Part shown: positions 7,525 through 13,126 of the stretch, one piece after another
Layout: every line of letters begins with the position of its first letter
Position numbering within the stretch: position 1 is the first letter of the stretch
Source: a virus
Length of the DNA: 45,394 bases
IMG/VR virus record: IMGVR_UViG_3300010376_000016
Location: 1-45,394 of that record
Strand: one strand, 5' to 3'
Made by a program: the position numbers and the translations under genes
The notes under the pieces: model-generated
Database searches by the model: none
What the model was told of the DNA's origin: nothing
What the model saw: the letters and a program-made list of their open reading frames with translations, nothing else

Positions 7525-8213
7525 TGACACTCGCGCCGCTCGAAGAGCGCTGGCAAGTCAAGGGCGTCACGGGCGCGGCCTACAAGGTCGGGCCGTGGTG
7601 CGCGAACCCGTTCTGCAGCCGTCAGGCGCAACACGCGCATCACATCGTGCGCCGTTCGGCGCTCGGCGGCGAGTTCCCTTGGGTCGAGATCGACGGCTGG
7701 GTCGTCGGCAACCTGACCGGGCTCTGCGTCCCCTGCCACAACGACATCACCGGCAAGCTCGGCGGTCACAAGGCCGCGATCTCGATCGACGTCCCGGACC
7801 GAAAGTTCTACTGGGCGACCGTCGATGCGGTCGTCAACGGTGTCCCTCGTCTTTCCAACTTCGGGCTGCTCGAACCGCAGCCTCCGACTCCTGAGCTACT
7901 GCTCTCTGAGCGAGCCCTCGGCCAAGGGATCGAGTCGGAGCACTGTCCGTTCTGCGGCTCGATCAAGCGGCGGCGGCGCGACAAGGTGGGGCCAGACACG
8001 CGCCGCCGCCGTAAGACCTGGACGGTCTCCGTCCCCGACGACACCGAAGACGGCGCGGCGATCCTCGACACGTTCATCGAGGACATCGAGTCGCTGCTCG
8101 GGGTGAGCGAATGGGAGGAACGGAACCGCCGCTACTGGGCGCTCGTCCATGCGCTCGCCTGGGTGATGCAGCACCGTGGTTCGTTCGAGCACGACTGGAA
8201 GGTCGCGGCATGA
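7524..8213 (+). CDS. HNH endonuclease (229 aa)
   Basis: QHAHHIVRRS...GNLTGLCVPCHNDIT. Confidence 0.85.
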   Translation: MTLAPLEERWQVKGVTGAAYKVGPWCANPFCSRQAQHAHHIVRRSALGGEFPWVEIDGWVVGNLTGLCVPCHNDITGKLGGHKAAISIDVPDRKFYWATVDAVVNGVPRLSNFGLLEPQPPTPELLLSERALGQGIESEHCPFCGSIKRRRRDKVGPDTRRRRKTWTVSVPDDTEDGAAILDTFIEDIESLLGVSEWEERNRRYWALVHALAWVMQHRGSFEHDWKVAA

Positions 8214-8353
8214 ACGACGACGAGCTCGTCACCGAAGAAGGAGCTCCACGCTGTCCGTACTGCGACCGCGTGATGTCGAACCGCGAAGCGGCCGAGCAAG
8301 GAGCCTGCAACGACTGCTACGGCGGTGCGTGGTCGCCCGAGGAGGACGCATGA
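8210..8353 (+). CDS. Small zinc-ribbon protein (47 aa)
   Basis: CPYC...CNDC; ATGA overlaps. Confidence 0.5.
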   Translation: MNDDELVTEEGAPRCPYCDRVMSNREAAEQGACNDCYGGAWSPEEDA

Positions 8354-8760
8354 GCGCCGGATCGCGCGGGTCGAGCCGCGAACGGCAGGTCCTGATCAAG
8401 CTCGTGACGGACGGCTGGGTCGTCTACCGCTCAGCTGGCTCGCACAAGCCCGCCGACCTGATCGCGCTGCACGTCGGGGAGACGCCGCGCCTGATCCAGG
8501 TCAAGGGATCGAAGGTCGGTGCGTTCCACGACTTCCCGCCCGATGATCGCAAGGCGCTGATCGAGGAGGCGTTCCGTGCTGGCGCAGAAGCGTGGCTCGT
8601 CTGGTGGCCACCACGAGGCGAGATGCGCTGGATCGCGCCGGACGCCTGGCCGAACGGCAGAGAGATGAGGACGCAGATCGCACGTCTGGTGATCGCGTCC
8701 GACGGCGACCTGGATCACGCGCTCCGCGTGAGCCGTGAAATCGAGAGGACGGCCCCATGA
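8350..8760 (+). CDS. Hjc-like PD-(D/E)XK Holliday-junction resolvase (136 aa)
   Basis: GSSRERQVLIKLVTDGWVVYRSAGSHKPADLIAL...LIQVKGSK matches the Hjc pattern. Confidence 0.7.
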   Translation: MSAGSRGSSRERQVLIKLVTDGWVVYRSAGSHKPADLIALHVGETPRLIQVKGSKVGAFHDFPPDDRKALIEEAFRAGAEAWLVWWPPRGEMRWIAPDAWPNGREMRTQIARLVIASDGDLDHALRVSREIERTAP

Positions 8761-8897
8761 CGATCCATCTCGCCACCTACACGTTCCTGCGCGGCAAGAC
8801 GTTGGTGCAGTGCAGTTGCGGCTGGAACGGCGGCAAGCACGTCAAGTACGCGAAAGCCCAGAACGCCTGGCTCGAACACGAACGGAGGGCAGCATGA
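8757..8897 (+). CDS. Hypothetical small protein (46 aa)
   Basis: Hand-translated; ATGA overlaps at both ends. Confidence 0.45.
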   Translation: MTIHLATYTFLRGKTLVQCSCGWNGGKHVKYAKAQNAWLEHERRAA

Positions 8898-9349
8898 GCG
8901 ACGAACCCGACGAGCTCGAAGAGATCGAAGGCGAAGTGATCCTGGCCGAGAGCGAGGGCAGTGAGCCCGGCTCGACACGCACGATCCGCGTCTACGACAA
9001 AGCCCGGGGCGACTTCACGCTGGAGATCCCGTCCGAGTCCACAGTGACGTTCGGCTACTTCAACCCGGCAACGGCGGGCGACCGCTCTCCGAACTACGAC
9101 ATGCGCGGCGCGGGGCTGACGTTGAAGGCGACGGCGCTGCGAATCTACAAGAAGGGCAAGACGAGCTCGCAGCTTGCCTGCTTCCTCGGCGTCGATGGCT
9201 TCCGCGATCTCTCGCTCAAGCTGACGCGCCTCCGCCAGCGCGTCGTGATCGAGTCGAACTTCGAGGACGACGGCGAGGGCAACCAGAAGTGGGGAGGGAA
9301 CGAGCAGCGCAAACTGATCCGTGCAGCGGAGGACGAGGAGATCCTCTAG
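8894..9349 (+). CDS. Hypothetical protein with acidic N-terminus (151 aa)
   Basis: In frame with ORF 8735..9349; ATGA overlap. Confidence 0.65.
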   Translation: MSDEPDELEEIEGEVILAESEGSEPGSTRTIRVYDKARGDFTLEIPSESTVTFGYFNPATAGDRSPNYDMRGAGLTLKATALRIYKKGKTSSQLACFLGVDGFRDLSLKLTRLRQRVVIESNFEDDGEGNQKWGGNEQRKLIRAAEDEEIL

Positions 9350-9958
9350 GTGCTGATCCTCGTCCATACCGCGCACCCGCAGGCGGTCGAACACGCCGGT
9401 CCCGGCTTCGGTCGTCTCCTCTCGCCGCGCGACTACTCGCGGGCCCGCGACACGGGCGCGGCCGGAATCCCCTGGGCGGCCGACAACGACGCCTTCAACG
9501 ACTTCCACCCGCACCGCTACGCGCAGATGCTGATGACACTGCGCGGAGCCCCCGGCTGCCTGTTCGTGACGCTGCCCGACGTCGTGGCCGACTGGCAACA
9601 GACCCGGCATCTAGCCGACCAGTGGCTAGCGTCGCTGCACGACCTGCCGGTCGCCTACGTCGCGCAGGACGGCCAGCCCGAGGCGCTCGTCCCTTGGGAG
9701 TCGATCGACTGTTTGTTCCTCGGCGGGACGACGTCGTTCAAGCTCTCCGCCGACGCGCAGCGGCTCGGCCGCGAGGCGAAGGACAAGGGCAAGTGGCTGC
9801 ACATGGGGCGCGTCAACTCGCGCAAGCGGTTCGACTACGCGCGGGCGATCCACTGCGACTCGGTGGACGGCTCGTCGTTCTCGAAGTGGCGCGAGACGTA
9901 CGTGCCCGAAGCCCTCGAATGGCACAAGGAGCCGTTTCAGATGGTGACCGAGACATGA
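9350..9958 (+). CDS. dpdA: DpdA-like DNA-guanine transglycosylase (TGT superfamily, short form, 202 aa)
   Basis: WAADNDAF and HMGRVNS...CDSVDGSSFSKW resemble the two conserved TGT/DpdA blocks; adjacent to a YhhQ-type transporter. Confidence 0.5.
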   Translation: MLILVHTAHPQAVEHAGPGFGRLLSPRDYSRARDTGAAGIPWAADNDAFNDFHPHRYAQMLMTLRGAPGCLFVTLPDVVADWQQTRHLADQWLASLHDLPVAYVAQDGQPEALVPWESIDCLFLGGTTSFKLSADAQRLGREAKDKGKWLHMGRVNSRKRFDYARAIHCDSVDGSSFSKWRETYVPEALEWHKEPFQMVTET

Positions 9959-10227
9959 TCGCGACCCGTTACGTGCTGACCGTGACCGCCAAGTGTCCGG
10001 TCGCCTTCGACTACGTCGATGTCTACGACCTGACGGTCGAGGCGGAGCAGCGAACGATCCCGGTCGAGGACATCCTCGACGCCATCGCCCGCCTGACCGA
10101 GAAGCCGATCTTCCAGGAGGAGCTCACCGAACGACTGTCGGAAGAGCTCAGAGCGACCGTCGAGACGTTCGGCACCCACTCGGGTGTCAAGACGACCTGC
10201 GTTGCGGTCTACGAGGAGCAGCCATGA
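9955..10227 (+). CDS. QueF/QueF-L-like T-fold protein (90 aa)
   Basis: KCPVAFDYVDVYDLTV...FQEELTERLSEEL parallels QueF CPxTGQPDF...FHEDC; the ExKSxKLY NADPH motif is absent. Confidence 0.4.
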   Translation: MIATRYVLTVTAKCPVAFDYVDVYDLTVEAEQRTIPVEDILDAIARLTEKPIFQEELTERLSEELRATVETFGTHSGVKTTCVAVYEEQP

Positions 10228-10751
10228 CGAAGCTCGTCGCCACGCTCGCCGCCGTCTACGTCGGGCTCGCGATCCTCGCGAACTGGCTGGCCTCGAAGTA
10301 CACGATCACCGTCCCCTTCACCGACTACCTCGCCCCAGTTGGCGTCCTCGCGATCAGGGCCGTGCTCGTGATCCGCGACTGGCTGCAGCAGTTGACGAAC
10401 CTCTGGTGGTCGCTCGCGTTGATGGTGCTCGCCGCCGCCTCGTCCTACCTGATCGGCGTCGCGGCCGGGTGGACGTCGCTGCAGAAGATCGCGATCGCGT
10501 CGGTGATCGCCTTCCTCGTCTCCGAGTCGATCGAGGCCGTCGTCTTCACGCCGCTGCGGAACCGCAACCTGACGCTCGGCGTCGGCTTGAGCGCGACGGT
10601 CGGCAACGCGATCGACTCCTACCTGTTCCTGACGATCGCCTTCGGCTCGCTCGCCTTCTTCTGGGGCAACTTCATCGGCAAGTTGGAGATGATCGCCGTC
10701 GGCGTCGTCCTGACGCTCGGCCGTCGCAGGTTCCTGGCGGTGGCGACGTGA
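10224..10751 (+). CDS. yhhQ: YhhQ/DUF165 (VUT) family queuosine-precursor (preQ0) transporter (175 aa)
   Basis: Multi-pass membrane protein; SATVGNAIDSYLFLTIAFG matches the conserved YhhQ block. Confidence 0.65.
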   Translation: MTKLVATLAAVYVGLAILANWLASKYTITVPFTDYLAPVGVLAIRAVLVIRDWLQQLTNLWWSLALMVLAAASSYLIGVAAGWTSLQKIAIASVIAFLVSESIEAVVFTPLRNRNLTLGVGLSATVGNAIDSYLFLTIAFGSLAFFWGNFIGKLEMIAVGVVLTLGRRRFLAVAT

Positions 10752-10837
10752 GCATCACCGCCATCTTCACCGGAGCGCTGCTCGGGCTCGCGGCTTGGCT
10801 GCTGATCATCGGCCTCGTCTGGTGGTGGGTCTCGTGA
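10748..10837 (+). CDS. Membrane micro-protein (29 aa, VSITAIFTGALLGLAAWLLIIGLVWWWVS)
   Basis: GTGA overlaps at both ends. Confidence 0.45.
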   Translation: MSITAIFTGALLGLAAWLLIIGLVWWWVS

Positions 10838-11091
10838 GGCCGCGCTTCAAGGCGGGCAGCCTGACCGGCTTCACGAGCGACAAGGCAGTCAGCCCGACCA
10901 CGACCTGGTACGTCTTCGACCGCTCCTACGCGCACCGGGTCGTCGGCACCTTCGACGGCCCGCGCGGCGCGCAGCGCGCGCAAGCCTTCGCCGCCAAGCT
11001 GAACGACTGCCCCGAGCTCCTGCAGCAGTTGCTCGCAGGTGATTTATCTCTTTCACCGAGACGGCAAAGCGGGGTGAGGCTGCAGGGCTGA
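10834..11091 (+). CDS. Hypothetical protein (85 aa)
   Basis: GTG in frame with ORF 10795..11091. Confidence 0.5.
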   Translation: MRPRFKAGSLTGFTSDKAVSPTTTWYVFDRSYAHRVVGTFDGPRGAQRAQAFAAKLNDCPELLQQLLAGDLSLSPRRQSGVRLQG

Positions 11092-11358
11092 GCCGCCGAC
11101 AAGCTCTGTGAGAGCCGGGAACCAGTCTGGACGGGTCGGGGGCACTCGTAACTAGGTGAGCTCGACGGCCAGGAGTGGGCTCTGACTCGGATGGCCGACA
11201 GCGGACCTCGCTAGGCACCGCGCACCGCCCGAGTCAGAGCGAGTGGGGATCCGCCAGCGCAAGCAGTGGGACGGCTGGGAACCCCGGACACAGAGCGTAG
11301 CGAGCCGAAGGCAAGCCCGCCGCTGCTCGGCTCGACTAGGCGGCCTACCTAGCAAGGG

Positions 11359-11835
11359 ATGAGCAAGCCGTTCCCTGAAACCAAGCGCTGCAACGGGCCC
11401 GCACACGCCGAGCCGGTCCTGCTCCCGCTCGACGGCGAACACTGGTACTTCCACCGGACCGGCAGTCGAGTCGGCTCGCCGGTCACGCCCTGCCGCCAGT
11501 GCGTGAACTGGAGCAAGCTGCTCAAGCCGGAGGGCCCGCACGGCTACGTGCCGATCAAGGACGTGCTCCCCTACGTGCGCGAGCTCGTGGAGCGCTGCGG
11601 CTCGATCTACAAGACCTGCAGGCGGCACGGGTTCGCGGAGGACACGTTGCGTCAGGCCTTGAACGGCGGGCACGAGCAGATGCAGAAGAAGACGATCGGG
11701 CGCGTCCTGCTCGCGCTGCAGGAGCAGCGTCAGTTCGACCGCAAGAACGGGACGAGCTCGCGCTTTCACGAGGAGGTACGACGGCGAGCAGAAGCGGAGA
11801 AGAGAAGGATGCGGAGCGAGTGGAATCGAGAATGA
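11359..11835 (+). CDS. Hypothetical Cys-containing basic protein upstream of the integrase (158 aa); possible DNA-binding function
   Basis: ORF track; high GC3; basic C-terminus. Confidence 0.65.
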   Translation: MSKPFPETKRCNGPAHAEPVLLPLDGEHWYFHRTGSRVGSPVTPCRQCVNWSKLLKPEGPHGYVPIKDVLPYVRELVERCGSIYKTCRRHGFAEDTLRQALNGGHEQMQKKTIGRVLLALQEQRQFDRKNGTSSRFHEEVRRRAEAEKRRMRSEWNRE

Positions 11836-11902
11836 GTACGGCCCGACTAGTGCGGCTAGAATGCGATGGTCTAAATCCATCGACCTCACACAAGGAGGAA
11901 CC

Positions 11903-13126
11903 GTGTCTGAGTTCATCCCGCACCCTGACCGTGCGGCCTTCCCGTACCTCAAGCAACGCCGCAACGGCGTCTGGTACATCATCCAGGGGCGCAACGGCCG
12001 CTCACCGCGTCGCGACTCGCTCAAGACGACCGAGATCCGCGAAGCCGAGAAGCGCTACCACCAGCTGGTCGGGCTCGACCCCGGCGCGAACCAGAAGATC
12101 ACCGTCACCAAGGCGTGGGCGCTCTTCATGGCTGACCACTCCGCCAGCGAAGACACCCGTGACCGCTACCAGACCGCCTGGCGGATGGACATCGAGAACG
12201 AGATCGGGCACATGCTGGTCGCCAAGGTGACGCCCGGCGACTTGCAGCGGCTGCTCGACAAGGCTGCCGAGCGCAAGACGAGTCGAGGCACCCTGCTCTC
12301 CGAGAACTCGCGCCGCAACATCGAGGTCGCGCTCTCTGCCTTCTTCACCTGGTGCATCTCAGTCCCGCAGGAGTACCGGCTCGACAGTCCGGTCAAGCGG
12401 CTCGACAAGAAGAAGCGAGCTCGCGTCCGCAAGCGTTCTCACGCCGAGCTCAACCTGTACGTCACGACCGAGGAGATCGACCTGATCGCGGCGGCGGCCG
12501 GAAAGGTCGGACGGAACAACGTCAACGGCCAGATCCTCGCCGTCCAGATGCCGGTGATCGTGCTCCTGCTGCCGCTGCTCGGGCTCCGCATCAGCGAGCT
12601 TCTCGGCCTCCGTGTCAGCGACTGGCACCGCCTGCACGGCGAGCTCGTGGTCGAGCGCCAGCGCGCGCGCAAGGGCTCGGTCAAGGACCCCGGCTCGCTC
12701 GTCAAGGGACTCAAGGGCGAGGCGACCACGATCGGTGACAAGCGGCGCGTCGTCACCCTCTCGCCCTTCGCGTCGAAGACGCTGGCCGCCTACGTCGATC
12801 GCGGCGTCACGGAAGGCTGGCTGCACCACGACGGCTATCTCTTCCCGACCTACAAGGGGACGCCGCGCACCTCGTCATTCGTGATGGCGAAGCTGCGCGA
12901 GGCGGTCAAAGAGGCAGGAATCGGGCGCACGATCACCGCCCACTATTTCCGACACACGCTCGTCTCGGACGCGATCAAGTCGTACACCGATCAGGGCTCG
13001 AACGTGAACTGGACGTTGATCGGTGACACGCTCGGCCACACGCCCGAGGTCGCCCGCAAGATCTACGGGCACGTCGAACGGACCGACGCGATCCGGCGCG
13101 AGCAGGCGCGCTTCGCGGGACGCTAG
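11903..13126 (+). CDS. int: Tyrosine integrase (407 aa)
   Basis: AHYFRHT (HxxR), LGH, KIYGHV catalytic Tyr region; GTG directly after CACACAAGGAGGAACC. Confidence 0.92.
   Translation: MSEFIPHPDRAAFPYLKQRRNGVWYIIQGRNGRSPRRDSLKTTEIREAEKRYHQLVGLDPGANQKITVTKAWALFMADHSASEDTRDRYQTAWRMDIENEIGHMLVAKVTPGDLQRLLDKAAERKTSRGTLLSENSRRNIEVALSAFFTWCISVPQEYRLDSPVKRLDKKKRARVRKRSHAELNLYVTTEEIDLIAAAAGKVGRNNVNGQILAVQMPVIVLLLPLLGLRISELLGLRVSDWHRLHGELVVERQRARKGSVKDPGSLVKGLKGEATTIGDKRRVVTLSPFASKTLAAYVDRGVTEGWLHHDGYLFPTYKGTPRTSSFVMAKLREAVKEAGIGRTITAHYFRHTLVSDAIKSYTDQGSNVNWTLIGDTLGHTPEVARKIYGHVERTDAIRREQARFAGR

Follow-up and report, generated by a model that had tools for sequence, protein, structure and literature searches.

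The window analysed here (the whole stretch of 45,394 bp) is the complete genome of an uncultured virus from IMG/VR (record IMGVR_UViG_3300010376_000016) with direct terminal repeats and 66% GC, and the subject of this study is one of its genes, which encodes a protein of 90 amino acids, P0001. It was concluded, with a probability of roughly 0.6, that P0001 is a T-fold enzyme of the QueF/QueF-L branch, reduced to one minimal module, and that its gene belongs to a three-gene operon by which a temperate, high-GC phage salvages and modifies preQ0 (7-cyano-7-deazaguanine). The protein probably reworks the imported 7-deazaguanine base for phage DNA. By carrying 7-deazaguanine modifications in their DNA, phage genomes are shielded from restriction enzymes (PMC6884629) and, in vitro, from Cas9 (PMC10484667), and the list of such DNA bases keeps growing. 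The gene is located as follows:

9955..10227, plus strand: gene of the mini QueF-L-like T-fold protein (P0001, 90 amino acids), identified from its translation, the GC content of third codon positions, its homologues, an AlphaFold2 model and the first rank of QueF-L by profile, Foldseek and VIA-align.

Translation of this open reading frame gave the protein quoted in the initial annotation, which had described it as a mini QueF-like protein. The GC content at the three codon positions (0.63/0.40/0.87) resembled that of the flanking genes; therefore, the frame is coding and did not arise by chance. When 1.84 billion cluster representatives were searched exhaustively with HMMER, 343 homologues were obtained at E<=1e-3, of which 49 reached E<=1e-10; the homologues were mainly viral and nearly all 80-90 amino acids in length. 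An alignment of 127 members (A1) was the basis of all residue counts given below. Only one relative was retrieved when 5.8 billion proteins were searched by indexed words; the corresponding search for longer, fused forms, made with the alignment, retrieved none, which is weak evidence against their existence. When P0001 was scanned as a single sequence, no Pfam, NCBIfam or PADLOC model matched; among the PHROGs it weakly matched phrog_37496 over the full length, to which no function is assigned, and in the ESM Atlas it fell among clusters called "hypothetical protein" that were 56-100% viral. In 50,697 deposited phage genomes, tblastn with three members of the family matched nothing, megablast of the window gave no match, and a full-text search of the literature to late 2026 found no description of the family. 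The mini family is thus genuine, mainly viral and unannotated.

The structure of P0001 predicted by AlphaFold2 with A1 as input (predicted local distance difference test score, pLDDT, 96.6; predicted template modelling score, pTM, 0.87) was a canonical T-fold, in which strands 3-13, 21-31, 68-75 and 78-84 and helices 37-47 and 54-65 follow the order beta-beta-alpha-alpha-beta-beta. The initial annotation had called for comparison of such a model with QueF and QueF-L and had regarded a model other than a T-fold as counter-evidence; a T-fold is what was found. In a Foldseek search of the PDB, QueF-L (5jyx/5k0p) filled the first 13 places with E about 5e-5 and template modelling scores of 0.74-0.82, followed by GTP cyclohydrolase I with E about 1e-3 and QueF (4f8b) with E 0.036. 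In a VIA-align comparison with 48,161 chains, QueF-L was again the best match (Z 12.8, 89 aligned residues, root-mean-square deviation 2.9), ahead of GTP cyclohydrolase I (Z 11.3), QueF (4f8b; Z 10.0), FolX (Z 10.0) and dihydroneopterin aldolases (Z about 9.7). The top 24 rows, with Z from 12.8 to 6.7, were all T-fold proteins or their homologues, including PTPS/QueD and urate oxidases.

The same order was obtained at the level of sequence. The A1 profile matched QueF-L (5jyx) among PDB sequences at E 1.4e-6 and GTP cyclohydrolase I at E about 0.05, and QueF (4f8b) was not among the matches at E<=10. The relation to QueF-L surfaced only with the family profile, whereas phmmer of P0001 against the same PDB sequences returned only noise. 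Considering the 343 homologues, the profile E value and the Z score of 12.8, the resemblance to QueF and QueF-L is well beyond chance, and the closest relative of the mini family, by profile and by structure, is the archaeosine synthase QueF-L. The suggestion in the initial annotation that the protein lay nearer to archaeal QueF-L than to QueF, and that it was among the smallest members of the family, was therefore borne out: mini proteins have 80-90 residues, compared with 109 in the PDB chain of QueF-L and 165 in unimodular QueF.

QueF-L of Pyrobaculum calidifontis (5jyx, 5k0p) shares with the mini family a single-module T-fold without the NADPH motif, the Cys-Pro pair with an Asp downstream of it, the anchoring Glu and a Glu where helix 1 starts. 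It differs in its greater length, in sequence (identity is about 20%), and in having H-E where the mini family has Q-E; moreover, the His at position 75 is new in the mini family. QueF-L is archaeal and acts on tRNA-bound preQ0, whereas the mini family is viral and acidic. According to the net charge calculated from sequence, 89% of the members are negative, with a mean of -4 and a value of -9 for P0001, a composition that appears unlike the expectation for a nucleic-acid-binding QueF-L.

The residues on which the functional assignment depends are encoded at the following positions:

9994..9999, plus strand: codons of C14-P15, with the predicted thioimide-forming Cys (Cys in 127/127 members, Pro in 126/127); C14 aligns with Cys21 of 5jyx.

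10018..10020, plus strand: codon of D22, the predicted general acid/base (Asp in 122/127); it aligns with Asp28 of QueF-L.

10066..10068, plus strand: codon of E38, the sole remnant of the QueF NADPH motif (127/127); in the alignments its counterparts are the Glu of the QueF-L segment I-E-E and that of the Bacillus subtilis QueF segment V-E-S-K.

10111..10119, plus strand: codons of F53-Q54-E55, the predicted base-anchoring motif (Q54 and E55 invariant; F or Y occupies position 53 in 111/127).

10177..10179, plus strand: codon of H75, an invariant family-specific His in strand 3 (127/127); it aligns with a Tyr of QueF-L and with the His of A-V-H-Y in GTP cyclohydrolase I.

Five residues (C14, E38, Q54, E55 and H75) were invariant in A1, and P15, D22, Y24, V37, T58, V69 and G73 were conserved in at least 90% of the members. 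The family consensus reads C-P-V-D-x3-D-x-Y ... V-E-x-I-L ... (F/Y)-Q-E-x-L-T ... G-x-H-S-G-V. The parallels with QueF and the preserved context of the active-site Cys that had been read from the single sequence were both recovered in the profile alignment, which placed C14-P15, D22 and F53-Q54-E55 on the QueF and QueF-L motifs. Where helix 1 starts, the V-E pair fell on I-E of QueF-L, and where helix 2 starts, Q-E fell on H-E; F53-Q54-E55 as a whole corresponded to (F/L)-H-E of QueF and QueF-L and to Q-E in GTP cyclohydrolase I. In the AlphaFold2 model, E55 lies at the start of helix 54-65, the place where T-fold proteins carry a conserved Glu or Gln that anchors a 2-amino-4-oxo-pyrimidine. 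The number of Asp28 in QueF-L was counted on the 5jyx chain in the profile alignment, where this residue stands seven residues after Cys21, which forms the thioimide in QueF-L (PMC5485725). The spacing between Cys and Asp is likewise +7 in the mini consensus and +8 in P0001, in which F18 is a one-residue insertion that 126/127 relatives do not have and A17 occupies a position that is Asp or Asn in 111/127.

The helix-1 segment of unimodular QueF reads E-S-K-S-L-K-L-Y. The corresponding NADPH motif, E(S/L)K(S/A)hK(L/Y)(Y/F/W), was absent in all 127 mini proteins, as had been noted initially for P0001 alone; only the Glu is kept. The position two residues after this Glu was I, L or V in 127/127 members, the position five residues after it was mostly A, V or E (91/127), and at neither Lys position of the motif was Lys among the commonest residues of the 127 sequences. 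The alignment thus indicates that the canonical NADPH site is absent throughout the family. Unimodular QueF (B. subtilis, 4f8b; PF14489) has in common with the mini proteins the T-fold core, the catalytic Cys and Asp and the Glu anchor; it possesses both the NADPH motif and an N-terminal extension, of which about 50 residues are missing from the mini family.

These observations bear on the possibility that P0001 is a true nitrile reductase that converts preQ0 to preQ1 (7-aminomethyl-7-deazaguanine) with NADPH or another reductant bound in a non-canonical manner. All phage QueF-family proteins examined so far were reductases (PMC10516641), and at one locus (L109) a canonical QueF with E-S-K-S-L-K-L-Y lies beside a DpdA-like gene in the position that the mini protein takes elsewhere. 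However, besides the missing motif and N-terminal part, the catalytic His of the H-E motif is replaced invariantly by Gln (Q54), unlike in QueF and QueF-L. P0001 did not match Pfam QueF at E<=1, and of the 127 members scanned singly only two matched it, below the threshold (best E 0.009), whereas QueF-L is nearer by both structure and profile. A reductase is therefore very unlikely.

The same single scans gave sub-threshold matches to Pfam GTP_cyclohydroI in 27 of the 127 members, which raised the question of a T-fold protein with a pterin, folate or other role (FolX-, FolB- or FolE-like) that is merely adjacent to the module. GTP cyclohydrolase I (FolE) resembles the mini proteins in its T-fold, in a Q-E-x-L-T motif and in a His that matches His75, and FolX and FolB gave VIA-align Z scores of about 10. 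On the other hand, the C-P...D signature marks QueF and QueF-L specifically; the zinc-ligand and catalytic residues C-E-H-H of FolE are absent, the segment reading C-P-V-D in the consensus and C-P-V-A in P0001; and FolE has N-terminal helices that the mini proteins, about half its size, do not have. Together with the linkage to DpdA-type genes at 7/7 loci and the two gene fusions described below, this makes such a role hardly tenable.

The genes that flank the mini gene are the following:

9350..9958, plus strand: short DpdA-like transglycosylase, 202 amino acids, upstream with overlapping start and stop.

10224..10751, plus strand: Vut_1/YhhQ-type queuosine-precursor transporter, 175 amino acids, downstream with overlapping start and stop.

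The ATG of the mini gene overlaps the stop codon of the upstream gene within an ATGA at 9955-9958, and a second ATGA, at 10224-10227, joins the stop codon of the mini gene in the same way to the ATG of the gene downstream. Overlaps of this kind are the usual sign of translational coupling, so the mini gene is predicted to be coupled with both neighbours. A scan of window positions 8000-11900 for promoters and terminators found nothing exceeding shuffled controls. Directly upstream, at 8888-9349, lies a gene for a 153-residue protein with an acidic N-terminus that abuts the DpdA-like start (TAG, then GTG); its product matched no family and was absent as a conserved gene from the related loci. 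An integrase-like gene is found at 11861-13126, just downstream of the module; therefore, the module is situated in an accessory region beside lysogeny genes.

The 202-residue upstream product was 39-44% identical to actinophage proteins called "DpdA-like tRNA-guanine transglycosylase" in SEA-PHAGES, and it matched phrog_15826 at 2e-42 and no Pfam model of tRNA-guanine transglycosylase (TGT). Its AlphaFold2 model (pLDDT 94.4) had a bacterial TGT as the best fold in the PDB (E 8e-6, TMq about 0.56). The family comprises more than 900 clusters at 90% identity without a Pfam domain. About 30 residues were invariant in its alignment (A3), including the motifs D-N, P-D, Q-D, G-G, H-x-G-R-V-N and D-G, whose order presumably parallels that of the catalytic and pocket motifs of TGT. 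The family of about 200 residues thus looks like a much-reduced TGT barrel, to judge from the model, and by inference acts on DNA.

Several deposited phages carry homologues of this protein in other settings. In Escherichia phage phiG7 (Seuratvirus; L017:2929-3521) and in SHIN8, the homologue is split into two open reading frames flanked by the genes of the polymerase beta subunit and of the DNA polymerase; these Queuovirinae additionally encode a canonical DpdA and FolE. The locus L005 and Vibrio phage R29Z share the synteny of phiG7 (processivity factor, DpdA-like protein, polymerase). In Roseobacter phage CRP-701 (L020:2902-4027), the homologue is labelled "ssDNA-binding protein" and is directly followed by a VUT family protein, and in Erythrobacter phage ZS04 it is labelled "DarB-like antirestriction protein"; both labels are probably mis-annotations.

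The 175-residue downstream product exceeded the cut-off of Pfam Vut_1 (33.6 bits compared with 27.2), matched phrog_4899 at 8e-26 and gave sub-threshold matches to NCBIfam TIGR00697, "queuosine precursor transporter" (E 1.9e-7), and to preQ0/preQ1 transporter models. In the complete window genome, no Pfam match was found for QueC, QueD/PTPS, FolE, radical SAM proteins or canonical TGT; since genes for preQ0 biosynthesis are lacking, the phage must rely on an imported or host-made base. Complete relatives also have no QueC and carry Vut. A hint of the host, albeit a weak one, came from the single genome with a mini protein among 401 sampled Actinomycetota genomes, a Conexibacteraceae metagenome-assembled genome (MAG) in which the gene lies on a 13.6-kb contig that looks like the same phage type as the window. 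In this MAG, TGT was strongly matched (403 bits), QueD was not found and only sub-threshold PP-loop matches were obtained for QueC, though part of the MAG is missing and the contig may have been binned wrongly. The MAG looks like a salvager of queuosine precursors, which echoes the remark that some phages with genes annotated as QueF-L have hosts that do not synthesize preQ0 but possess YhhQ (PMC6884629).

Further loci were located with a degenerate DNA pattern across the C-P, Q-E-x-L-T and H-S-G-V codons, for which 7/8 hits in IMG/VR and 1/22 in species genomes were true members. A DpdA-type gene adjoined the mini gene at 7/7 true IMG/VR loci. At six of the seven it was the same short DpdA-like gene, in the orders A-Q-V, A-V-Q, V-Q-A, Q-A and A-Q (A, DpdA-like; Q, mini protein; V, Vut transporter). 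At L005, from a phage of 52% GC, the mini gene lies between the polymerase processivity factor and a gene for a 223-residue protein of phrog_887, "queuine tRNA-ribosyltransferase" (E 4e-46), which belongs to a different DpdA lineage. No fourth conserved gene was found across the mini loci. In addition, two rare natural fusions were found: P0104 (302 amino acids) consists of a DpdA-like part, 38% identical to that of the window, followed by the mini domain, and P0143 (242 amino acids) consists of Vut_1 (E 1e-13) followed by the mini domain.

The converse survey covered the 80 best DpdA-like loci in IMG/VR with 3.5 kb on either side. Vut was encoded at 37 of them, the mini protein at 3, a protein of the type found in Arthrobacter phage Aoka at 5 and a textbook QueF at 1, the locus L109 mentioned above. 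In the cultured phage Aoka the gene order is gp38 (Vut_1), gp39 (QueF family) and gp40 (DpdA-like). The gp39 product (L003:2562-2891, 109 amino acids) is annotated as a hypothetical protein, yet it exceeds the Pfam QueF threshold (29.5 bits compared with 27.3), and hhalign related A1 to it with 86.5% probability (E 4.5e-6). Proteins of this type (gp39 and those of L093, L100, L101 and L104; about 109 amino acids) thus share with the mini proteins both homology and the slot beside Vut and DpdA-like genes; they are longer and keep H-E and a variant NADPH motif, E-L-H-S-L-R-x-Y, neither of which the mini proteins have. Located between Vut and DpdA-like genes, the Aoka type constitutes a second QueF-family subtype that lacks annotation. 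Three different QueF-superfamily T-folds therefore alternate in one slot of a transporter-plus-transglycosylase core. In a quick tree of DpdA-like proteins, in which some of the loci were truncated, the mini-associated rows were scattered and had sisters without the mini protein, a pattern that requires no fewer than two or three gains or losses. The mini protein is thus an optional add-on to DpdA-like/YhhQ modules and not a core part of them.

Both the fusions and the survey bear on whether the mini protein performs chemistry at all. It could instead be a covalent or tight-binding carrier of preQ0, which would trap the base at the transporter, drive its uptake by mass action and hand it unchanged to the DpdA-like protein, giving dPreQ0 in DNA. 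The fusions to both the transporter and the transglycosylase are consistent with such a carrier, as are the acidic composition of the family, the lack of a specificity shift in the neighbouring DpdA-like protein and the finding that the thioimide of QueF-L with free preQ0 is stable and unreactive (PMC5485725). However, the mini protein is absent from 34 of the 37 Vut-containing DpdA-like loci and hence is needed neither for uptake nor for insertion; QueF-family proteins, canonical QueF included, take the same slot elsewhere, which suggests a modifying role; and the invariance of two further residues, H75 and E38, suggests a catalytic role in addition to binding. Because most modules do without the mini protein and enzymes replace it elsewhere, a pure carrier is rather unlikely.

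The preferred reading is accordingly that of a modifying enzyme, and its mechanism can be proposed by analogy. In QueF and QueF-L, a Cys attacks the nitrile of preQ0 with the assistance of an Asp to form a thioimide, which is then resolved by hydride from NADPH in QueF or by ammonia in QueF-L. Since the Cys, the Asp and the Glu anchor are kept in the mini family and the NADPH site is missing, we infer that the mini protein is an NADPH-independent, Cys-thioimide enzyme that forms a covalent adduct with imported preQ0 and then uses a small nucleophile to resolve it. The phage makes no preQ0, so its YhhQ-type transporter would first import the base. The mini protein would then bind it, with E55 anchoring the 2-aminopyrimidinone, C14 attacking the nitrile and D22 donating the proton, so that a covalent thioimide forms as in QueF and QueF-L. 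Next, a small nucleophile rather than hydride would resolve the thioimide, with the family-specific H75 as a candidate base: ammonia would give the amidine G+ (7-formamidino-7-deazaguanine), the most likely product because the nearest relative, QueF-L, works in this way, and water would give the amide ADG (7-amido-7-deazaguanine). Finally, the short DpdA-like transglycosylase would exchange guanine in phage DNA for the resulting base.

The alternative with water has to be considered in its own right. A hydrolytic enzyme, in which water attacks the Cys thioimidate, would yield ADG or CDG (7-carboxy-7-deazaguanine), to be placed in DNA thereafter. It would use the same conserved Cys/Asp apparatus and no cofactor site, and His75 could activate the water; moreover, both dADG and dCDG are known from phage DNA, and the enzymes behind them have been assigned only in part (PMC10516641, PMC6884629). 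However, the closest characterised relative, QueF-L, is an amidinotransferase and not a hydratase; the known enzyme converting preQ0 to ADG, DpdC, belongs to the unrelated family DUF6884 (PMC12235509); and no PADLOC Dpd model matches P0001. Hydrolysis is therefore quite unlikely. The initial annotation rightly stated that the chemistry could not be predicted from sequence.

Returning to the amidine-forming enzyme as the preferred reading, the next question is whether it would act on the free base or on DNA. The fusion to a membrane transporter, the acidic composition and the presence of a transporter in the operon favour the free base, and the two natural fusions in particular point to it. QueF-L itself forms the adduct with free preQ0 (dissociation constant about 8 uM) as well as with preQ0-tRNA, turns over only preQ0-tRNA and uses NH4+ (PMC5485725). 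Conversion may precede insertion or follow it, since the lack of a clear specificity shift in the DpdA-like protein does not fix the order.

Several observations weigh against this reading as a whole. Free G+ was reported to be unstable (PMC5485725), so the route through a free amidine base is awkward without channelling, for which fusion to the transglycosylase could provide. P0104 and P0143 are, however, each represented by a single metagenomic sequence. Most DpdA-like/Vut modules, including the 34 mentioned above, do without the mini protein, and where it is present the candidate pocket residues of the DpdA-like protein do not clearly change; all putative pocket residues are near-invariant, and a small residue is weakly favoured at the third position past the G-G motif. 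The match of the DpdA-like model to the TGT fold was only moderately better than to other TIM barrels. The Cys-Asp loop of P0001 is atypical because of A17 and the inserted F18. Lastly, the replacement of His by Gln and the acidity of the family, both in comparison with QueF-L, could change the chemistry.

Among known systems, the known parts of phage 7-deazaguanine modification include DpdA1-4, QueF, Gat-QueC, ArcS, DpdL, DpdM and DpdN (PMC6884629, PMC10516641). DpdL, a QueD paralogue (PMC10516641), and DpdC, of family DUF6884 (PMC12235509), were considered as identities of the mini protein and rejected because they belong to different families. Gat-QueC of phage 9g and QueF of phages Dp-1, HVTV-1 and phiSM, makers of G+ and preQ1, resemble the mini protein in being accessory enzymes beside DpdA, and they diversify the 7-deazaguanine that a DpdA puts into phage DNA (PMC6884629, PMC10516641). 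Their phages, unlike the window phage, mostly encode preQ0 synthesis, and the fold of Gat-QueC is unrelated. In the 2023 survey, the most complete one, the NADPH motif was present in every phage QueF protein, and no such protein aligned with QueF-L (PMC10516641). The type of system is thus known; what is undescribed in the literature found is the QueF-L-like mini enzyme, its Q-E/His75 signature and its coupling to short DpdA-like/YhhQ salvage modules.

The mini family fills the gap left by that survey: a viral group of at least 343 clusters is closest to QueF-L and is linked to short DpdA-like transglycosylases and YhhQ importers in phages that make no preQ0. Current profile libraries therefore miss a whole branch of the QueF superfamily. 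It is tentatively suggested, as a possibility that is still doubtful, that P0001 represents the first viral QueF-L-type, NADPH-independent nitrile-converting enzyme, acting on the free imported base and physically coupled to a transporter and a DNA transglycosylase. If so, phages that make no preQ0 could decorate their DNA with G+ or an uncatalogued 7-deazaguanine derivative, and no smaller catalytic T-fold than the mini protein would be known. Host DNA could be modified as well when the module is expressed from a prophage. The mini protein offers a small, easily expressed candidate for three questions, namely T-fold nitrile chemistry on a free base that is channelled to a transglycosylase, the identity of the base inserted by the widespread 200-residue DpdA-like proteins, and the way in which salvage-only phages diversify their DNA base.

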